A stretch of DNA of 40,000 bases, taken from contig NZ_MLAQ01000001.1 of the NCBI RefSeq assembly GCF_002272895.1, forward strand, positions 109,800-149,799, in the 5' to 3' direction. The translations under genes and the position numbers were made by a program. The notes under the pieces were generated by a model that searched no databases, was not told the origin of the DNA, and saw only the letters and a list, made by a program, of their open reading frames with translations. Within the stretch, counting starts at the first letter, position 1. Every line of letters starts with the position of its first letter. The stretch is from Helicobacter sp. 12S02232-10 (GTDB lineage Bacteria > Campylobacterota > Campylobacteria > Campylobacterales > Helicobacteraceae). Shown one piece after another: positions 23,509 through 30,941 of this stretch.

Positions 23509-24045
23509 ATGGACCGTATATTGAGTGTTATTTGGTTTTTATTTGGCTTGGCCATTCTTGCTTGTGGAATCATATCTGTTTTTACCCCCACAGAGACATT
23601 TTTAGCTCTGATGGTTCTGATCCCAATTATTTTAATTGCAAGTGGCATAGTAGGAATTTTTTATTACTTTAGAATTCGAGAATTTTCCAGTTCCCAATGG
23701 GTATTGGGAGATGGTTTGTTATCTTTGTTTTTTGGACTTATATTTACATTTGGTGGGGTTGAATTCACTTCTATTACAATGATTTATTTTGTGGCATTTT
23801 TGGCAATATTTAAAGGTATTTTGGGAATATCTTCTTCTTTTGTGTTAAAAAAATCAGGATTTTCTCAATGGTTTTGGTTATTTATTGTTTCAACAATTAA
23901 TATTTTCATCGGGATAATTTTTGCCATCAATCCAAGTATTGCATCTGTAACTATAGGTATCTTAGCCGGTATTTATTTCATATTTTTTGGTCTAATCTCC
24001 TTAATGGGATGGTGGGGATTGAAAAAATTCAAATCAATCCTTTAG
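23509..24045 (+). CDS. HdeD/DUF308-like membrane protein
   Basis: 178 aa, six hydrophobic helices in a repeated pattern, Gly-rich TM segments. Confidence 0.55.
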   Translation: MDRILSVIWFLFGLAILACGIISVFTPTETFLALMVLIPIILIASGIVGIFYYFRIREFSSSQWVLGDGLLSLFFGLIFTFGGVEFTSITMIYFVAFLAIFKGILGISSSFVLKKSGFSQWFWLFIVSTINIFIGIIFAINPSIASVTIGILAGIYFIFFGLISLMGWWGLKKFKSIL

Positions 24046-25112
24046 TGGTTGATATTATCCATAATACTGGCCGCTTCTAAAAGATGCTTCTTGTCAAAAT
24101 GCGTATAAATTCTACTTGTGTTTAAATCTGCGTGTCCTAAAGCTTCTTGGACCAATACTAAATCGTGTCTTTTTTGGTAGAGCAGGGTGGCAAAAGAATG
24201 TCTTAACATATGTGCTCCATTTTTTTCTTTTCGAATGCCGATACTGGCTAGTATTTGCTCAACTTGACGGTAAATATAAGCTTGTGTCAAAGGTCTTCCT
24301 CTTTGATTGCAAAATAATAACTCGTCTTCAACCTCGATCTGAGATCTTATCATCAGCCATTCTTCAAGCAAATTTCGAATATGGAGTGCTTTTATCATTA
24401 CTACTCGATATTTATTTCCTTTTCCTTTGATATTCAAAAGATATAAATTTTCTTCTAGGTTTATATCCTTTGCTTTAAGATGGATAGCCTCACTAACTCT
24501 TATGCCGGTGTAAATAATCATTTTTATGATCAAGCGGTTTCTTGCACGAATTTTTTCTGACATTTCAAATTTTTCAATCCCAGATAAAAATTTTTCCAAT
24601 TCATCCTGATTTAGATAGGTAGGGAGTTTTTGTCCTGATTTTCCCTTGACCCCGCTAATATTTTTGAGTTCTATATTATAAATATATGAATTTCCGTTTG
24701 CATCTTGATTTTGTTTATCAATATAATTAAAAAAGCCTAGCAAAGCAATACGATAATTTTTTTTGCTCGCCAAGCTCAATCCCCCTGTCTGCATTGCCAA
24801 AAACTCACTCAAGACCTCTTCATCAATTTCTTTCATTGAATTAAAATCTCTCAAATACTCATAAAGCTTGATAATAGGTTGGGCATAAGTATTAATGCCA
24901 ATGAGTCCTGCATTTCTAGCAATTTTACAAATCATCTCAAGTTCTTGAATATTTTTAGGTTTTTTTTGAAGTCTTTGGAGGCATTCTTGAATACATTTTT
25001 TATCCTTTACTTGGGTATTTGAAAGCGTTGTAAGTTTATAACGAATAAAACGAGATGACCAAAATAGTAAATCTTGTAAAAAACCTTCATCGGATTCTAA
25101 AACATAACGCAT
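24042..25112 (-). CDS. xerH: XerH-type tyrosine site-specific recombinase
   Basis: 356 aa, the long form typical of the epsilonproteobacterial single-Xer enzyme. Catalytic R (TGIRVSEA), HMLRHSFAT, LGHADLNTSRIYTH (R-H-R-H-Y set). AAGGA RBS. A difH-like site lies 31 bp upstream of its ATG. Confidence 0.8.
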   Translation of the reverse strand: MRYVLESDEGFLQDLLFWSSRFIRYKLTTLSNTQVKDKKCIQECLQRLQKKPKNIQELEMICKIARNAGLIGINTYAQPIIKLYEYLRDFNSMKEIDEEVLSEFLAMQTGGLSLASKKNYRIALLGFFNYIDKQNQDANGNSYIYNIELKNISGVKGKSGQKLPTYLNQDELEKFLSGIEKFEMSEKIRARNRLIIKMIIYTGIRVSEAIHLKAKDINLEENLYLLNIKGKGNKYRVVMIKALHIRNLLEEWLMIRSQIEVEDELLFCNQRGRPLTQAYIYRQVEQILASIGIRKEKNGAHMLRHSFATLLYQKRHDLVLVQEALGHADLNTSRIYTHFDKKHLLEAASIMDNINH

Positions 25113-25142
25113 CTATATCCTTTTATTTATTATAATAGTAAA

Positions 25143-25176
25143 TTTAGTTATGAAAACCATAATTTTCAAACTTTTT
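25143..25176 (+). promoter_or_regulatory. difH-like Xer recombination site (functional-looking; attL of the insertion)
   Basis: TTT-AGTTATGAAAA-CCATAA-TTTTCAAACTT-TTT: two imperfectly inverted 11-bp arms around a 6-bp centre. This matches my recollection of the Helicobacter difH arms (..AGTTATGAAAA..N6..TTTTCA..). Confidence 0.7.
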
Positions 25177-25205
25177 ATTTTATCTTGAAATTCCATAATA
25201 TCGAT

Positions 25206-25250
25206 GGTTTGAAAAATTATAGCACGAAAACTAGAGTTTTCATAACTAAA
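25206..25250 (-). promoter_or_regulatory. second, inverted dif-like site
   Basis: The minus strand reads TTTAGTTATGAAAA-CTCTAG-TTTTCGTG-CTATAAT-TTTTCAAACC. The 14-nt left arm is identical to that of site 1, the right arm is degenerate, and an extra right-arm copy lies 7 nt further on. Confidence 0.5.
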
Positions 25251-25303
25251 AAAAGCTTAAATTTAAAAAGTTTAATTTCTATTCTTAAGATTAAGTTCGA
25301 TAG

Positions 25304-26041
25304 ATGTTCTTAGAAAATTTAGATTTTTTGAGTTTAAAAATTCCTAAAGAAGCTTACACCCTCTTAAAAACTAACTTTGGAAGAAATTGCCTTATTTTGT
25401 ATGGTCTTATAAGGAATAGATGTGAATTTAATGGCTCCTATAAATTTACTACGTCTGAATTTTCTGAATTTTTTGAAATAGAACAAAGACAAATTAATCG
25501 ATGGCTAAATTTTTTAAAACAATCTAACCTAATCGACTTTAAAATCACTTCAAAGCACTATATATGCAGGATTGAAGGCATTACAGGCAAATACCCGCCC
25601 TACTCTAACCCTGTAAATGAAGCCTCAAACTCTGAAGCCTCTGAATCCTTACCCCCTGTTAAAAAATCCAAAAAGAAAAAAGAAAAAAGCATTTATTCAG
25701 AGCTTTCAGATGAAGAGCTAGATTTAATGGATGAAATTGAAACTTATCTCAGAGGGCAGAAGTTAAGATATCAAGATTTTGATATGGATTTTTTAAATGT
25801 AATTTATGAAGAAGAGAGTAACGAATTTCAAATTAGATTTTTACGAGAAGATGGCGGGATGGTATATTTTACAAGGCATAGAACGCATTTAAAGAAAAAT
25901 AACAGTGCTTCTCTTTTTCAGGCTTTTGACAATATGGCAATGAATTATCACCATTATCACGACACCATAGCACCAAAAAGAAGCGTGGGCGAGCTTGTCA
26001 ATAATGCCTACAAGCCCCTTAAAAAGGAGGTTAAAATGTAG
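25304..26041 (+). CDS. putative DNA-binding replication/regulatory protein (winged-HTH-like N-terminus)
   Basis: The N-terminal ~90 aa resemble a wHTH (TTSEFSEFFEIEQRQINRWLNFLKQSNLI), followed by an S/E/K-rich linker (KKSKKKKEK). First gene of the element. Function inferred. Confidence 0.4.
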   Translation: MFLENLDFLSLKIPKEAYTLLKTNFGRNCLILYGLIRNRCEFNGSYKFTTSEFSEFFEIEQRQINRWLNFLKQSNLIDFKITSKHYICRIEGITGKYPPYSNPVNEASNSEASESLPPVKKSKKKKEKSIYSELSDEELDLMDEIETYLRGQKLRYQDFDMDFLNVIYEEESNEFQIRFLREDGGMVYFTRHRTHLKKNNSASLFQAFDNMAMNYHHYHDTIAPKRSVGELVNNAYKPLKKEVKM

Positions 26042-26090
26042 GAAAGGACTGAAAAAATTATTGACACAAATTATATCAAAAGGATAAAAA

Positions 26091-26369
26091 ATGATTTTAA
26101 ATGTTGATGTTAATGTAACTCTATATGATGTTTTGGAAGATGAATACTGCTTTTCAACAGGGTTTCAAAAGGCGATAAATGATGTTTGTGAGTATTTTGA
26201 TAAACCAAACCCTTTTATAAAAGATGATAACAGCTTAGAAGCGGTTATAAAACAACTAAACGAGGTTATCAATGAAGTTTATTGCCTTCCATTACATTCT
26301 AAAAAAATGGTTTTAAAAAACCTGGATTCAAAAAAATTACAGGAGCTTTATAATGCACTCAATGATTAA
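26091..26369 (+). CDS. phage hypothetical protein (acidic, 92 aa)
   Basis: ATG preceded by AAAGGA. No motif recognised. Its 3' two-thirds are duplicated in the mini-element. Confidence 0.55.
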   Translation: MILNVDVNVTLYDVLEDEYCFSTGFQKAINDVCEYFDKPNPFIKDDNSLEAVIKQLNEVINEVYCLPLHSKKMVLKNLDSKKLQELYNALND

Positions 26370-26832
26370 AGGCGATTTTCCTAAAATGCTTGAAATACTG
26401 ATGAAAGAAGGAATTTTTAGCAACTACCTTAATGAAGCGATAACAAGTGACTCAAAGACTTCTTATAAGCTTCTTTTTATAGGTTTTACTGGGGGCTTTG
26501 ATTTTCCAAAAGAGAGTATTTGCAATGATGATTTATACAAACACGGATTAGTAGCTTTGTTTGCTTATAAAACCATCCATATAGTTTGCATCGGTTGCAC
26601 AAATATGACTTTTGAAAAGTTTAGAGAAATCATTTTACAACCAACTAAAAAAAGAGAAGCCACGATTAAAAGATATTTCAATGCATTCCATCAAAAACAC
26701 GATGACAAAGTTTTAAGAACTCAAGAGATACAAGCCTTAATTAAGCACCATAGCAAAATCTACCCTCAATTTTTAGAGCTTTTTGAAACCTTGATACAAT
26801 CGGATAAGCTAGATAAGTTAAATAATAATTGA
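26353..26832 (+). CDS. phage hypothetical protein (159 aa)
   Basis: Overlaps the upstream ORF by 17 nt and has a GGAG RBS. The C-terminal 96 codons are duplicated exactly at 35367..35657. Its last 30 nt form part of the inverted repeat. Confidence 0.6.
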   Translation: MHSMIKGDFPKMLEILMKEGIFSNYLNEAITSDSKTSYKLLFIGFTGGFDFPKESICNDDLYKHGLVALFAYKTIHIVCIGCTNMTFEKFREIILQPTKKREATIKRYFNAFHQKHDDKVLRTQEIQALIKHHSKIYPQFLELFETLIQSDKLDKLNNN

Positions 26833-27027
26833 CTTTTAAAGGAGTAATTAAGGAAAGTAGTGTATAATTTTATCGCCCCTCGTTCGTAGCGGGGGGCAAG
26901 ACCAAATTAAAGGACCTGCGATGTGCACCAAACATCGGAAAGCCTTTAAGAAATTATACATCAAATTTAAAATATTTGGTATAAAAATTATCTTAAAGGC
27001 TAAGAGGGGTTAATCCCCTCCATCCTT
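26803..27027. repeat. inverted-repeat module, left copy (IR-L)
   Basis: The reverse complement of 33815..34034 aligns with near-identical flanks and an unrelated ~50-bp core. Hairpins at 26875-26897, 26919-26937 and 27004-27020. Confidence 0.9.
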
Positions 27028-27045
27028 TAATATATGGTTTTTCTT
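26875..27045 (+). ncRNA. candidate structured RNA / late-operon leader (copy 1)
   Basis: Perfect TATAAT at 26863-26868 places a start near 26875, exactly at the first GC-rich hairpin (GCCCCTCG-N7-CGGGGGGC), and two further hairpins follow. The 3' end is uncertain, and the transcript may read through into 27154. Confidence 0.35.
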
Positions 27046-27153
27046 CCCCTCCCCTTTTCAAACCTTTATTTAATCATCTTCAGTATTATTTTTATATTTA
27101 TTTGTAATACTATGGTATTATTTTAATCATAAAAAATAATACTAGGATTTTGA

Positions 27154-27447
27154 ATGTCTGAAATTTATAACAATAAAGAAACTCAAAGCGATATCCAAAA
27201 AAACTCAATTGAATATCCTGAGATGAAAATAGACAGCAAGCTAAAAAAGGCACTCGAGATTAAAAAAGAGCTTGAAAAAGAAGAGGACCCCACTCAAAAT
27301 CAAGATTCAGAAGTGCAAACCCCCGCTTTTGAAGATAGTAAAGCCCCTTTTTTTATTTTAGGAGCTACATTTTTAGCCGTGGTAGCTTTTATTTTAAGTC
27401 CAAAAATTATTAAATTGTTTGAAAAAGGCAGAAGTAATGAGGAATGA
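27154..27447 (+). CDS. phage membrane protein (C-terminal TM)
   Basis: 97 aa with a charged N-terminal half and then a TM helix (FFILGATFLAVVAFIL). Confidence 0.6.
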   Translation: MSEIYNNKETQSDIQKNSIEYPEMKIDSKLKKALEIKKELEKEEDPTQNQDSEVQTPAFEDSKAPFFILGATFLAVVAFILSPKIIKLFEKGRSNEE

Positions 27448-28033
27448 AATGGAAAACGGGGCGATAAATGAAGAAAAAATCCCCGATTTTGTAAATTTCG
27501 ATAAAAATACAAGCGAATCAGCTAAAAAAGAGGATTCTAAGGGTTTTGAAGCATCAGGCTTTAAACTGTTTCAAATGAAGTTAGATGATTTAGCTACCTT
27601 AGCAAAGCCTTACGCCCCCTCAAAATCCCACGATACGCTTGTAAAAATGGGTAAAAAGAAACTCATTGCCATCATTCAAGCTAAATCAGATAATACACAA
27701 GAGGTTAATAATGTCTCAAATAATATTAATAATCTTGAAAACCTTGTTAAATCCTTCCTACAAGCCTGTGATGAATTTAAAAAAGAACGCGATAAAGAAC
27801 CCAATAACACCGCCCTTAAAGCAACGATTGAAAATAATGTGCATCCTGCTTTTGGGAATGGGGCTATTGCTTCCGTTGATTCTACTTTTGTGGCTAGGAT
27901 TATTGTTATATGCGGGCTTCTATACATTGCTACAGATTCCTTTTTTGGTATTAAAAACGTTGTTAATGCCTATAAAAATTATTTGTCAAAAAAGAAAGCT
28001 AGCAAAGCTAAAGAGAGTGCAAATGCAAGCTAA
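27419..28033 (+). CDS. phage membrane-anchored protein (coiled-coil plus C-terminal TM)
   Basis: The track start is a TTG. The ATG at 27437 (11-nt overlap with the upstream stop) is more likely. C-terminal TM (ARIIVICGLLYIATDSFFGI) and a K-rich tail. Confidence 0.6.
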   Translation: MKKAEVMRNEMENGAINEEKIPDFVNFDKNTSESAKKEDSKGFEASGFKLFQMKLDDLATLAKPYAPSKSHDTLVKMGKKKLIAIIQAKSDNTQEVNNVSNNINNLENLVKSFLQACDEFKKERDKEPNNTALKATIENNVHPAFGNGAIASVDSTFVARIIVICGLLYIATDSFFGIKNVVNAYKNYLSKKKASKAKESANAS

Positions 28034-28718
28034 ATTTAATACTTTTCATACAATTATGGGTAAAAAGGGCTATGGCAAAAGTTCGCTATGTGATATTTTG
28101 CTAATTTTGAATAACCGCCCTGCCTTGATTTTAGATACTACAAACGGCTTTCCACCCTTAGGAAAAAACCGCCTTTTTTTCGATGATATGGAAGAGCTAA
28201 ATCTTTATCTACAGCTACATTACAAAGAATTCATCAGCAAAAAACAGCAATTAATCCTCCAAACCAGAGACCCCGAGCAGTTTGAAGAGCTTTGCATTAC
28301 AGCTTATAAGTGTTCTAAAATTAGTTTGTTTATTGATGAAGTTGATTTTTATTGCGGGGCGAGTTTATCTAAAAAAAGTGCGTTCTACGATATTATCCAT
28401 ACAGGACGCCACCAAGAAATTGACCTTTATACAGCCAGCAGGCGACCAGCTAATATTAGCAGGGATTTGACCAGCCAGACCGATATTTTTTATCTCACAA
28501 TGACCACAGAAAACAGAGATTTTGACTACATTAAGCAAGCTTTTGGCGAAGATGTCAGCGATAAAATCAAGACTATCAAGCCATTTCATTTTTTAGTTAT
28601 CGACAAAACAAAAACGAATGCAGATGGCAGTAATCCCATCAACTTGCTTATTACTAAAAAAGAACAATTGGAATCAATTTATCGCTTAAATCTAAAAAAG
28701 GAGAGCAAAAATGATTGA
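28023..28718 (+). CDS. P-loop NTPase, putative genome-packaging ATPase (A32/P9-like; Zot-like not excluded)
   Basis: Walker A MGKKGYGKSS 10 aa from the ATG at 28023, Walker B SLFIDEVD, then HTGRHQEIDLYTASRRP. No TM segment. The 27666 track start only adds an out-of-context overlap with the previous gene. Confidence 0.7.
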   Translation: MQAKFNTFHTIMGKKGYGKSSLCDILLILNNRPALILDTTNGFPPLGKNRLFFDDMEELNLYLQLHYKEFISKKQQLILQTRDPEQFEELCITAYKCSKISLFIDEVDFYCGASLSKKSAFYDIIHTGRHQEIDLYTASRRPANISRDLTSQTDIFYLTMTTENRDFDYIKQAFGEDVSDKIKTIKPFHFLVIDKTKTNADGSNPINLLITKKEQLESIYRLNLKKESKND

Positions 28719-28800
28719 TAAAAAACTTGTGTTATCTACCATAGCAGGGCTTATTATCGGGCGTTTGATTGGGAAATATATCCCATCTTTGAAAGTTTAA
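28711..28800 (+). CDS. 29-aa single-TM peptide
   Basis: AGGAG RBS, ATG overlapping the ATPase stop (ATGATTGA). MIDKKLVLSTIAGLIIGRLIGKYIPSLKV. Below the ORF-track length cutoff, found by hand. Confidence 0.5.
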   Translation: MIDKKLVLSTIAGLIIGRLIGKYIPSLKV

Positions 28801-28816
28801 AAAAAAAGGAAAAAAT

Positions 28817-28912
28817 ATGAAGACTTATATTATCAATGGATTCGTTGTTGCAGTCGTTGCAATATTGTTTAACAAGCTATTGGCGCCTTTAATGGCTAAA
28901 TTTGGATTTTAA
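28817..28912 (+). CDS. 31-aa single-TM peptide
   Basis: AAGGA RBS. MKTYIINGFVVAVVAILFNKLLAPLMAKFGF. Found by hand. Confidence 0.5.
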   Translation: MKTYIINGFVVAVVAILFNKLLAPLMAKFGF

Positions 28913-28926
28913 TAAAAGGATAAGTT

Positions 28927-29901
28927 ATGCCAACCAAAAAACCATTATTCATTCCTCAACCAGCTACAAACCTAGTTTTGGGAGGTTCGAGCAATACTAT
29001 CAGTCTCAATCGCGGTTATACCGTGGATATGCTTCAAGGCGAAATTTATTTTGATTATACCTGTGAAAGCGGAGCAAGCTTTACCCCCGAGCATTTTTGG
29101 AATTCCATTAGCAATTTTGTTATCTTAGGAGATTCTAGCACCTACTACAAAAATCAAAGCTTTAGAAGCCTCAAAGCACAAGGCTATCGTATTGCAGGTA
29201 CAGAAATCAATACAGACCCTGAAAGTACAGCAGGAAATCACACTTACACCTTAAGATTTTTTATCCCATTAGGACTTTTTGGATTTAGCAATATTTCAGA
29301 TGCAGGGATAGAGAGTTCAATGTTTCAAAGCTTGCAAATAACATTCAATTCAGCAAGTGATAAAGATGTAGGCAGTGGTATTAAAATCAATTCAGGGCAA
29401 ATCAGGCTTTGGGAGTTTTCAGAACAACGTGTAGCAGGAACTTACACCGATAGCAGTGGCAAGCAGGTAAGCGGGCTTAGAAACCCTTTAAATTATTACC
29501 AAGAAACCAAAATAGAGACCATTAAAAGCAGTGGCACCGGCTACACAATCCAGCTACCCCCTTATCAATGGTATATAGGATTCCAGCTTGACACTAGGTT
29601 AAAAGATGGCAGTTTGGATAATTCTGTGATTAAAAATGTGAAATTCAAACAAAACCAGGATTTATTATTGAATCTACCTGTAGAAGTTATCAAAACTGAA
29701 AATCAAAGAAGATTTAGACTTGATAGGAGTTATCTCAATGGAAGTTTTTATGTTGATTTTAGTCAAATGGGACGTGTGAAGCATTCTGAAATTTTAAAAA
29801 CCTTTAATAACCCTACCTTAGAGTTAGATACCGATTTAGGAAGCAACTCAGAGGCTTATTTAGAAATCACTATGGGAATGTTAAAAGATTGGGGCGTGTA
29901 A
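28927..29901 (+). CDS. candidate major capsid protein (jelly-roll type)
   Basis: 324 aa, no TM, rich in short beta-like segments with aromatic/Gly turns. It is the largest soluble protein beside the ATPase and has an AAAGGA RBS. The fold is not verifiable by eye. Confidence 0.5.
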   Translation: MPTKKPLFIPQPATNLVLGGSSNTISLNRGYTVDMLQGEIYFDYTCESGASFTPEHFWNSISNFVILGDSSTYYKNQSFRSLKAQGYRIAGTEINTDPESTAGNHTYTLRFFIPLGLFGFSNISDAGIESSMFQSLQITFNSASDKDVGSGIKINSGQIRLWEFSEQRVAGTYTDSSGKQVSGLRNPLNYYQETKIETIKSSGTGYTIQLPPYQWYIGFQLDTRLKDGSLDNSVIKNVKFKQNQDLLLNLPVEVIKTENQRRFRLDRSYLNGSFYVDFSQMGRVKHSEILKTFNNPTLELDTDLGSNSEAYLEITMGMLKDWGV

Positions 29902-29902
29902 G

Positions 29903-30163
29903 ATGGCACTAGATAGCGGATTTTTTGAAAATATCAGTAGTTCGCTTGGAAAAATCAGCGATATCACAGGTAAGGTAACTGAAGCCATTAGCAATAAAAA
30001 TCCTAAACAAGCAGAGCAGGCAAGAGCGGAGGCGATGGCACAAAAAACAGGGGTTAAGACCCCTTTTATGATGGGTTCAACGAATAAAATGCTTTTAATT
30101 GCAGGCGGGGCGGGTTTATTGTTATTTGCTTTTTTGTTTTTAGGTAAAAAACGCAGGAGGTAG
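29903..30163 (+). CDS. virion/membrane protein, C-terminal TM plus basic tail
   Basis: 86 aa ending LLIAGGAGLLLFAFLFLGKKRRR. Starts 1 nt after the capsid-gene stop. Confidence 0.6.
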   Translation: MALDSGFFENISSSLGKISDITGKVTEAISNKNPKQAEQARAEAMAQKTGVKTPFMMGSTNKMLLIAGGAGLLLFAFLFLGKKRRR

Positions 30164-30166
30164 TTA

Positions 30167-30610
30167 ATGGGAAGCGGAGGACGCGGGGGCGATAATACAA
30201 ATAGCACCACAAATAATAATTATAATTTTTCACAAGCTTTAACAGGTAATAATCTAAGTAATTTTTTAAACTTAGGTACCTTTACTTATGGAAATCACAA
30301 CGTATCCACCCCGTCGTTATCTAATTCAAACTATTCCTCTTTAGGTACTTCGAACAAAAGCGATAATGATAACACTCAAAAATCTGATACAGGTTCAGGA
30401 GGAGCAGGCGGGGGCTTTAGTGCCGCACTTGATTTTGCAGCTAGTGCCGCAATTACAGGCGAAGGCGATGCTAAAAGTGGCGATGCGACCAAAGAAGGCG
30501 GAGGAGCTACCTATACACCCCCACCAAAGAATAATCAACAGCTTTTAATCTTTGGAGGCTTAGCAGTTGGTAGCCTTGTTCTTTTTAATTTATTGAATAA
30601 AAAAAGGTAG
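30167..30610 (+). CDS. low-complexity N/S/G-rich membrane-anchored protein
   Basis: 147 aa with an N/S/T/G-rich body (GSGGAGGG) and a C-terminal TM plus basic tail (LLIFGGLAVGSLVLFNLLNKKR). Confidence 0.6.
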   Translation: MGSGGRGGDNTNSTTNNNYNFSQALTGNNLSNFLNLGTFTYGNHNVSTPSLSNSNYSSLGTSNKSDNDNTQKSDTGSGGAGGGFSAALDFAASAAITGEGDAKSGDATKEGGGATYTPPPKNNQQLLIFGGLAVGSLVLFNLLNKKR

Positions 30611-30614
30611 TTCA

Positions 30615-30941
30615 ATGAATGAGAAACCAAATATCACATTAGCACAAGGCGCAGCCGCCAGTGATAACTCTGTAAGTCTTGGAAACATCGGACAAATAGG
30701 AAACTCTGTGAGTGGCTTCAGTGGGGAGGATGTCCAAGGGATTTTAAACCAGGCAGGGAGTGCTTTGATGGGTTCGCTTTCTCTTGTAATGGGAGAGAAC
30801 GCACAAAACACAGCTAGAATCTTGCAATCTACCAAAACCCCTACCCCAAATAATCCCAGTCCATTCGATTTAAAAACCATTTTTATCGGAGTAGGAATTA
30901 TCGCAGGAGCATACTTTTTAAGCAAAAAAAGGATTTTTTAA
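30615..30941 (+). CDS. membrane-anchored protein, C-terminal TM plus basic tail
   Basis: 108 aa ending IFIGVGIIAGAYFLSKKRIF. Confidence 0.6.
   Translation: MNEKPNITLAQGAAASDNSVSLGNIGQIGNSVSGFSGEDVQGILNQAGSALMGSLSLVMGENAQNTARILQSTKTPTPNNPSPFDLKTIFIGVGIIAGAYFLSKKRIF

Follow-up and report, generated by a model that had tools for sequence, protein, structure and literature searches.

The 40,000-nucleotide (nt) stretch of the genome of Helicobacter sp. 12S02232-10 analysed here (the window) carries three copies of a small, hairpin-rich module, named A, B and C, which are very probably type I toxin-antitoxin loci of the Helicobacter aapA/IsoA family. This family is already characterised through aapA1/IsoA1 and aapA3/IsoA3 of Helicobacter pylori (Sharma 2010; Arnion et al. 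2017, PMC5416894; Masachis et al. 2019, PMC6733600), and the modules add divergent members to it. Loci of this family have previously been reported beside prophage genes in H. felis and H. bizzozeronii, beside integrative and conjugative elements and a transposon, and on Campylobacter plasmids. The modules are thus best regarded as a further member of a family that is both characterised and already known beside mobile elements. Two more modules, L001-left and L001-right, lie at the ends of L001, a contig of a related phage. The counts below refer to four distinct versions (A, B/C, L001-left and L001-right), or to five when C is counted separately. Coordinates are collected in Table 1.

Every version has a ribosome-binding site and a conserved open reading frame (ORF) homologous to the AapA toxins, with 30 codons in A, B, C and L001-left and 31 in L001-right. 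This contradicts a first-pass annotation of the same DNA, in which the modules were taken for non-coding RNAs; it had overlooked the ORF as well as a second perfect TATAAT, on the opposite strand within the ORF. The motif AAAGGA(G) is found 3-9 nt before the ATG in all five versions, and the register of the ORF relative to the fold is constant. Such an ORF arises by chance in 5-14% of shuffled sequences for each version taken singly, and with a joint probability of 4.6e-5. When the AapA1 sequence (30 residues, from PMC10537873) was compared with the module A peptide by BLASTP, identity was 40% (E 6e-7), and in a tblastn search with AapA1 of all six frames of the window the three best hits were the three module ORFs (E 5e-5, 8e-3 and 8e-3), followed by a hit at 0.15. 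The C-terminal Lys-Arg, which a passage of PMC10537873 describes as indispensable to AapA1 toxicity, is kept in A, B, C and L001-left. Scans of the module peptides against Pfam and NCBIfam assigned them to no family, and AapA1 itself is likewise without a match, the family having no model in these collections. The segments between the outer hairpins of A and B had been called unrelated; read in frame they are MCTKHRKAFKK and MMEKHHKILKE, with 18 of 33 nt identical.

A perfect TATAAT, the putative -10 box of the toxin mRNA promoter, is present in A, B and C, while the corresponding promoters of the L001 modules would fall outside the contig ends; no match to a -35 element was reported for the module A sense promoter. 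On the opposite strand, exactly one TATAAT occurs per version, placed on x-Leu-Tyr codons, and in each of the four distinct versions this candidate antisense promoter is offset from the ATG by +32 to +37. The offset is +35 in the loci of H. pylori, H. vulpis and H. turcicus, those of H. pylori having one extra codon. The IsoA1 promoter is a TATAAT inside the aapA1 ORF, and it has been inactivated by a published silent change to TACAAG; as this change is silent only on Thr-Leu-Tyr codons, the IsoA1 box is placed on those codons, as here. To judge from its sequence and position, the opposite-strand TATAAT should drive an IsoA-like antitoxin RNA of ~76-83 nt covering hairpins 1 and 2. The antisense RNA and the mRNA 5' end (~70 nt) are each predicted to form two stem-loops separated by a 10-16-nt linker in A, B and L001-left; the predicted antisense fold of L001-right is less clean, with an additional 3-bp stem. 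Computed duplex energies range from -135 to -155 kcal/mol for cognate pairs and from -44 to -79 kcal/mol for non-cognate pairs.

Several structural claims of the first-pass annotation hold. TATAAT precedes hairpin 1 by 6 nt in each copy (26863-26868 on the forward strand, 33974-33969 and 36078-36073 on the reverse strand). Next come TTTATC and, with one U-G pair, GCCCCTCG-N7-CGGGGGGC in all three copies. For hairpin 3, A has GAGGGG-TTAA-TCCCCTC, and B and C have GAGGGG-TTAG-CCCCTC; both middle versions fold, as CGATGT-GCACCAA-ACATCG in A and as GATGATG-GAAAAG-CATCATA within GGATT...AATCC in B and C. Folding of all three copies is also far beyond that of shuffled sequences (z about -7 to -8). 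Module A has a minimum free energy of -69.6 kcal/mol against -38.2 kcal/mol for shuffles (z -7.9) and module B one of -71.5 kcal/mol (z -7.2); the two L001 modules reach z values of -7.6 and -5.9 despite much changed sequence. All four distinct versions, folded separately, give one common architecture, namely a 5' hairpin and, downstream of it, three hairpins enclosed by a long-range closing helix. This helix is spelled AAGACCA/UGGUUUU in A and AAUAUCAUU/AAUGAUAUU in B. The mRNA strand is more stable than its reverse complement by 11-19 kcal/mol.

When the four distinct versions are aligned with plain MAFFT, 84.7% of the alignment cells at paired positions are paired, compared with 43-51% when the partners are slid. 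Changes on both sides preserve the helices at 15 of 52 pairs, compared with 1-6 when the partners are slid, and none of 500 shuffles reaches 15. The predicted probability that the ribosome-binding site is unpaired is 0.03-0.34 in the full-length RNAs and rises to as much as 0.67-0.86 after 3' truncation. For the Shine-Dalgarno sequence of module A it is predicted to be 0.03 at full length and 0.76-0.80 after the loss of 20-40 nt from the 3' end. When 50 nt are removed from module A, the site is predicted to pair with a nearby CCUUU (probability of being unpaired 0.17), which recalls the transient hairpins described for aapA3. A discrete transcript, as proposed earlier, is retained in part: the sequence and its modelled fold point to a unit of ~170-190 nt with its own -10 box and a stable structure, which would be an mRNA and not a non-coding small RNA. 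The suggestion that the middle hairpin is a specificity determinant for kissing-loop or antisense contacts is most likely right, this hairpin matching apical loop II of aapA mRNA.

For a comparison with known loci, a search pattern taken from the modules (AGGA, 3-10 nt, ATG, 6 nt, AARCAY, 17-20 nt, ATTATAC) was scanned over 185,579 species genomes (596 Gb), giving at least 120 matching loci. Helicobacter (H. pylori, H. vulpis and H. turcicus) accounts for 28 among the 120 matches listed. Full-length AapA peptides of 30-32 residues are encoded by at least 26 of the 28 Helicobacter matches listed, and two H. pylori loci have truncated ORFs. The other 92 matches listed, which are scattered chance matches with ORFs of arbitrary length, served as decoys. 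The known loci share a layout of -10 box, GC-rich 5' hairpin, a linker such as CCUUGAAAGGAUUUAUC-AUG and an antisense box on Leu-Tyr, and past the stop codon a GC-rich hairpin followed directly by UUUCCUUUAA; in H. pylori, H. vulpis and H. turcicus alike, a GC-rich hairpin occupies the position of hairpin 1. An nhmmer DNA profile built from 24 known Helicobacter aapA loci only matched module A (E 2.6e-8; 26876-27045, profile positions 4-181) and L001-right (E 2e-8) over their full length, modules B (E 1.9e-3; profile positions 6-146) and C (E 2.2e-3) over nearly their full length, and L001-left in part (E 0.018). The best true decoy (E 7e-4) matched in the pattern region only.

Three loci in one Lachnospiraceae metagenome-assembled genome (CAMUAR01; L051, L060 and L106) also match the aapA pattern, with peptides that start MFEKHGIIS; their partial matches to the profile (E 7e-4 to 7e-3) are confined to the pattern region, and they are probably a repeated element matching by chance. 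At gathering thresholds nothing in the whole window matches Rfam 15, and a search of 26700-27200 with E up to 10 gave only chance-level matches (E >= 0.06). A blastn search of the module against phage and plasmid collections found no match. In IMG/VR the exact hairpin-1 pattern does not occur, and the aapA pattern has 27 matches, all of them by chance, with no aapA locus among them.

According to the aapA1/IsoA1 model, the full-length mRNA is inert through 5'-3' pairing and is activated by 3' trimming. IsoA1 makes kissing contacts at two apical loops, which decide specificity, and an extended duplex then blocks translation and is cut by RNase III; that loops I and II are the contact points explains why an IsoA represses its cognate mRNA only (Arnion 2017, PMC5416894). 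The modules lend themselves to the same scheme. In the full-length mRNA of ~170-190 nt, the 3' end is predicted to pair with the linker and hide the ribosome-binding site, so that the mRNA should be stable but untranslatable; the modelled loss of 20-40 nt at the 3' end would free the site. The antisense RNA of ~76-83 nt is predicted to form two stem-loops complementary to mRNA hairpins 1 and 2. By analogy, it would contact the two loops first and then form a full duplex, leading to a translation block and RNase III cleavage. Upon loss of the DNA or shutdown of antisense synthesis, a short-lived antitoxin would decay and the stable mRNA would yield a toxic, membrane-targeting peptide. Because hairpin 2 and two loop bases of hairpin 1 differ, module A would be orthogonal to B and C. 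The most likely role, given that the modules lie on or beside a small prophage, would be to stabilise this prophage or its remains. It is from the H. pylori system that we infer toxicity, relative RNA half-lives, processing and prophage stabilisation.

Several points weigh against this assignment. Transcription of both strands, 3' processing, toxicity and neutralisation are properties that we infer. The peptides contain more Lys and Arg than AapA1 (up to 11, in A, against 7) and lack its uninterrupted hydrophobic C-terminal stretch, and for these reasons their membrane activity may differ. The profile scores of B, C and L001-left are modest, and the covariation count comes from just four distinct sequences, which also supplied the structure. 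Downstream of the hairpin 1 complement lies GAUAAAAUUAUA instead of a U-run, which makes the 3' end of the antisense RNA uncertain. Long-distance pairing engages the 5' hairpin sequence in H. pylori but the linker in the modules. According to the predicted folds, hairpins 1 and 2 of the modules stay formed in the full-length mRNA and the linker alone pairs with the 3' end; the antisense RNA might therefore reach the full-length mRNA too.

One possible objection is that the modules are aapA/IsoA loci by descent that no longer work, either as ghost copies or through loss of peptide toxicity, and are carried passively by the prophage. Many inactivated or ghost aapA/IsoA copies are known (Arnion 2017, PMC5416894), the peptides are unusually lysine-rich, and copy C sits in a decayed prophage remnant. 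Nevertheless, neither -10 box has been lost from A, B or C, their ribosome-binding site, start codon and stop codon are intact, and their ORF still has 30 codons. These are the features by which the published authors call a module functional, and a related phage retains them in two strongly diverged versions; we therefore regard loss of function as improbable. Alternatively, the modules could be retained as non-coding structured RNAs, acting in trans as small RNAs with a target-selecting middle hairpin or in cis as put-type leaders like those of HK022, with an effect on RNA polymerase before the late operon. Such roles would suit the very stable, conserved fold and also the position of module A, 108 nt ahead of the first late gene; as this module lacks a canonical terminator hairpin, transcription might read through into the late operon. 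They fit poorly with an AapA-homologous ORF and ribosome-binding site in every version and with a conserved antisense promoter within the ORF. Downstream of modules B and C, moreover, there is no gene that they face, a hairpin with U6 after it closes each of the two, C is located in a gene-less remnant, and Rfam holds no match. This leaves the non-coding alternative very improbable, and the comparison with HK022 put drawn in the first-pass annotation is abandoned, since the element encodes a conserved peptide and B and C precede no operon.

It could also be argued that the modules act mainly as DNA and that the RNA fold is incidental; the inverted repeats might then serve in recombination or inversion, as origins of replication or as bidirectional terminators. 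A 102-nt inverted repeat of 94% identity does bracket the late operon, and the contigs of two related phages break at identical inverted 30-mers at both ends of the same operon. Against this, the U-G pairs and the strand preference favour RNA, the helices are preserved by compensatory changes while the sequences diverge, and the same layout is found at single-copy chromosomal aapA loci of H. pylori, which are not bracketing repeats; a role mainly at the DNA level has hardly any likelihood. Other RNA types were considered and dropped given the ORF and antisense promoter: retron msr/msd, IS110 bridge RNA and TnpB/IscB guide RNA; phi29-type packaging RNA, a single-strand replication origin and ColE1-like primer RNA; and immunity RNAs of the P4 CI or P1 c4 type. 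Near the modules, no partner gene such as one for a reverse transcriptase or a transposase was noted.

Table 1 Features of the modules, their host element and the related contig L001 (window coordinates unless L001 is named)
Feature	Position	Strand	Remarks
Module A, whole unit	26863..27046	+	sense -10 box to U-run after long-distance helix
Putative sense -10 box TATAAT, module A toxin mRNA promoter	26863..26868	+	predicted transcription start near G26875
Hairpin 1, GCCCCUCG...CGGGGGGC	26875..26897	+	apical stem-loop I; complement is 3' stem-loop of predicted antisense RNA
Shine-Dalgarno AAAGGA, module A	26909..26914	+	paired with UCCUUU 27023-27028 in full-length fold
Hairpin 2 ("swapped"), CGAUGU-GCACCAA-ACAUCG	26919..26937	+	apical stem-loop II; start codon inside
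aapA-like toxin ORF, module A	26921..27013	+	30 codons plus stop; peptide MCTKHRKAFKKLYIKFKIFGIKIILKAKRG; BLASTP/tblastn vs AapA1
Candidate antisense (IsoA-like) -10 box, module A	26953..26958	-	overlaps K-L-Y codons
Predicted IsoA-like antisense RNA, module A	26868..26946	-	~76-80 nt, two stem-loops; both ends putative
Hairpin 3, GAGGGG-UUAA-UCCCCUC	27004..27020	+	encodes R-G; stop codon in loop
Anti-Shine-Dalgarno UCCUUUAAU and long-distance helix 3' arm UGGUUUU	27023..27041	+	3' arm pairs with 26898-26904
Module B, second aapA/IsoA-like unit	33776..33974	-	converges on 3' end of prophage late operon
aapA-like ORF, module B	33828..33920	-	peptide MMEKHHKILKELYIKFKIFGVEIIFRMKRG (same peptide in C)
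Candidate antisense -10 box, module B	33883..33888	+	
Terminator-like hairpin of module B	33801-33776	-	CCCC-UUUUAU-GGGG, then U6
Module C	35880..36078	-	near-identical to B; adjoins host aspC-like gene
aapA-like ORF, module C	36024-35932	-	
Candidate antisense -10 box, module C	35987-35992	+	
Inverted repeat A/B, left arm	26803..26904	+	covers orf159 end, promoter, hairpin 1; right arm 33933-34034
L001 modules	8-176; 7177-7014	+; -	L001 coordinates
L001-left module peptide			MKNTHKKTLRILYLKIHVSWYCITIELKRG
L001-right module peptide			MSRKHRRILRELYFEISYFGIKIAFKIKWGR
Small integrated element	24042-35098		~11 kb
Tyrosine integrase	24042-25112	-	
DnaD/replication-initiator-like gene	25304-26041		then two small ORFs, then module A
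Structural (late) operon	27154-33685		with packaging ATPase
Packaging ATPase	about 28026-28718		resembles STIV2 B204 genome-packaging NTPase, E 7e-8
Decayed second copy of early region	35099-35823		then module C, then host genes

A repeat finder aligns 266 nt of B (33725-33990) with C (35829-36094) at 98% identity, and by the same analysis A and B share the 102-nt inverted repeat, then a divergent stretch, and then 88 nt at 77% identity. Two loop bases of hairpin 1 differ between A and B, promoter and hairpin 1 being otherwise nearly identical. The related contig L001 (7184 nt) contains the structural operon only, with one divergent module at each end in inverted orientation. Hairpin 1 is identical in its two modules; in the window as in L001, the paired modules diverge in their N-terminal codons and at hairpin 2. 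An A-type hairpin 2 (CGAUGU...ACAUCG) is found on the 5' side of the late operon in the window and on the 3' side in L001, whose 5'-side module has a third hairpin-2 type, UUCUUAUGA...UCAUAAGAA. As the A-type hairpin switches side between the window and L001, module bodies appear to have been exchanged between positions; promoter and hairpin 1 remain uniform within each phage despite this apparent exchange.

L001 and L002 are short Logan contigs that hold the only two relatives of the capsid-like protein of the host element among 5.8 billion proteins; capsid-based locus searches of genome contigs and viral contigs gave nothing. The ends of L001 (1-30 and 7155-7184) are the same 30-mer, inverted, inside hairpin 1 of the toxin mRNA. 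Those of L002 (1-30 and 6745-6774) are also identical inverted 30-mers, located further downstream, and no module is visible in L002. Both assemblies broke within inverted repeats that bracket the structural operon.

The element that carries A and B encodes, besides the genes listed in Table 1, several small membrane proteins and the capsid-like protein (324 aa), which is predicted to be mostly beta-strand and for which the AlphaFold2 model was unusable (predicted local distance difference test score 41.5). STIV2 was the only tblastn match of the packaging ATPase among phage records. These features suggest a PRD1/PM2-like Helicobacter prophage of the double-jelly-roll lineage, and the element appears to be a small, previously undescribed prophage of PRD1/STIV type, with no relatives in phage, plasmid or IMG/VR collections. 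The orf159 upstream of module A has no relatives except its remnant copy. Within the roughly 1 kb of unassigned sequence that separates module B from the remnant, two tandem 32-nt repeats (34509-34572, 81% identical) near a 65-aa ORF (34695-34892) may be iterons or a regulatory region. The motif AGTATTAY/RTAATACT is clustered at 27082-27143, a 62-nt interval after module A and ahead of the first late gene that contains 3 of its 9 matches in the window (expectation for the window as a whole, 3.0), and similar AGTATTAC/AATACT-rich sequence is also found upstream of the late operon in L001 (180-340) and in L002 (1-260 and 6650-6774); these copies may be operator sites or a late promoter.

The prophage remnant begins about 1 kb beyond module B. 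Over 35099-36130 it consists of blocks of 46, 136, 300, 69 and 141 nt from 25145-27373 (91-100% identical), immediately followed by a second 33725-34024 segment, which is module C; neither the integrase nor module A nor any structural gene is present. A segment of 310 bp comprising module A and downstream sequence (26828-27137) is precisely missing from the remnant (compare 35613-35650), with an 8-bp direct repeat, AAATAATA, on either side of the breakpoint (26820-27 and 27130-37). Insertion of module A as a cassette with an 8-bp target duplication of AAATAATA was judged less likely than a microhomology deletion in the remnant, because the homology of A and B runs 25 bp further left into orf159 and because the remnant has several other deletions.

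The inverted pair around the structural operon and the third copy in a decayed remnant both fit a function in keeping mobile DNA in the genome, and an inverted pair of divergent modules around the late operon is present both in this prophage and in L001. It is tempting to go further and propose that orthogonal, inverted aapA/IsoA pairs are a built-in part of an undescribed family of small PRD1/STIV-lineage Helicobacter prophages, always bracketing the late operon, sharing promoter and 5' hairpin, and doing more than addiction; we consider this wider proposal unlikely. If it were true, read-through from module A or convergent transcription from module B could couple the toxin to late-gene expression, or, alternatively, the pair could guard the structural block against deletion. 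More generally, divergent aapA/IsoA members are now available from related phage contigs and from a Helicobacter other than H. pylori. In them the regulatory logic (two promoters, a hidden ribosome-binding site and two recognition loops) is conserved while nearly all helix sequences are changed, and for this reason they are useful comparative material on the constraints to which the folding of a toxin mRNA is subject within coding sequence. A further lesson is that a cluster of hairpins in a phage should be taken for non-coding RNA only after a check for small ORFs and antisense promoters.

Among phage and plasmid systems, putL and putR of HK022 resemble the modules in being two related structured RNAs after two oppositely facing phage promoters. 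The put RNAs are non-coding, about 70 nt long, and act in cis on RNA polymerase, whereas the modules encode a peptide, have an internal candidate antisense promoter and, in two of three copies, no following operon. Other prophage-carried pairs of toxic peptide and antisense RNA are alike in kind, but their toxin families are unrelated and the antisense overlap there is 3' and not 5'. The hok/sok system of plasmid R1 and its chromosomal homologues offers a parallel in its stable folded toxin mRNA, inert by 5'-3' pairing and activated by 3' trimming, in its short-lived antisense RNA, and in post-segregational killing upon loss of the mobile element. The hok peptide is unrelated to those of the modules, without sequence similarity, and hok translation is coupled to the leader ORF mok, for which no counterpart was noted in the modules.

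The closest likeness is with aapA/IsoA of H. pylori. Shared with it are the 30-codon ORF with the motif M-x-x-K-H...K-x-L-Y-[ILF]-[KE]...K-R, the GC-rich 5' hairpin and a 5' untranslated region of about 45 nt, the antisense -10 box on Leu-Tyr, and an antisense RNA complementary to about the first 70-76 nt, with two complementary stem-loops in each RNA. Likewise, a 3' anti-Shine-Dalgarno sequence past a GC-rich hairpin hides the ribosome-binding site, and one genome holds paralogues that differ in their loops. The modules differ in their shorter mRNA (about 170-190 nt against 253 nt), in a region from H5 to L-Y that is one codon shorter, and in more cationic, lysine-richer peptides. They are also prophage-borne in a non-pylori host, where they form an inverted pair with almost identical promoter and hairpin 1.

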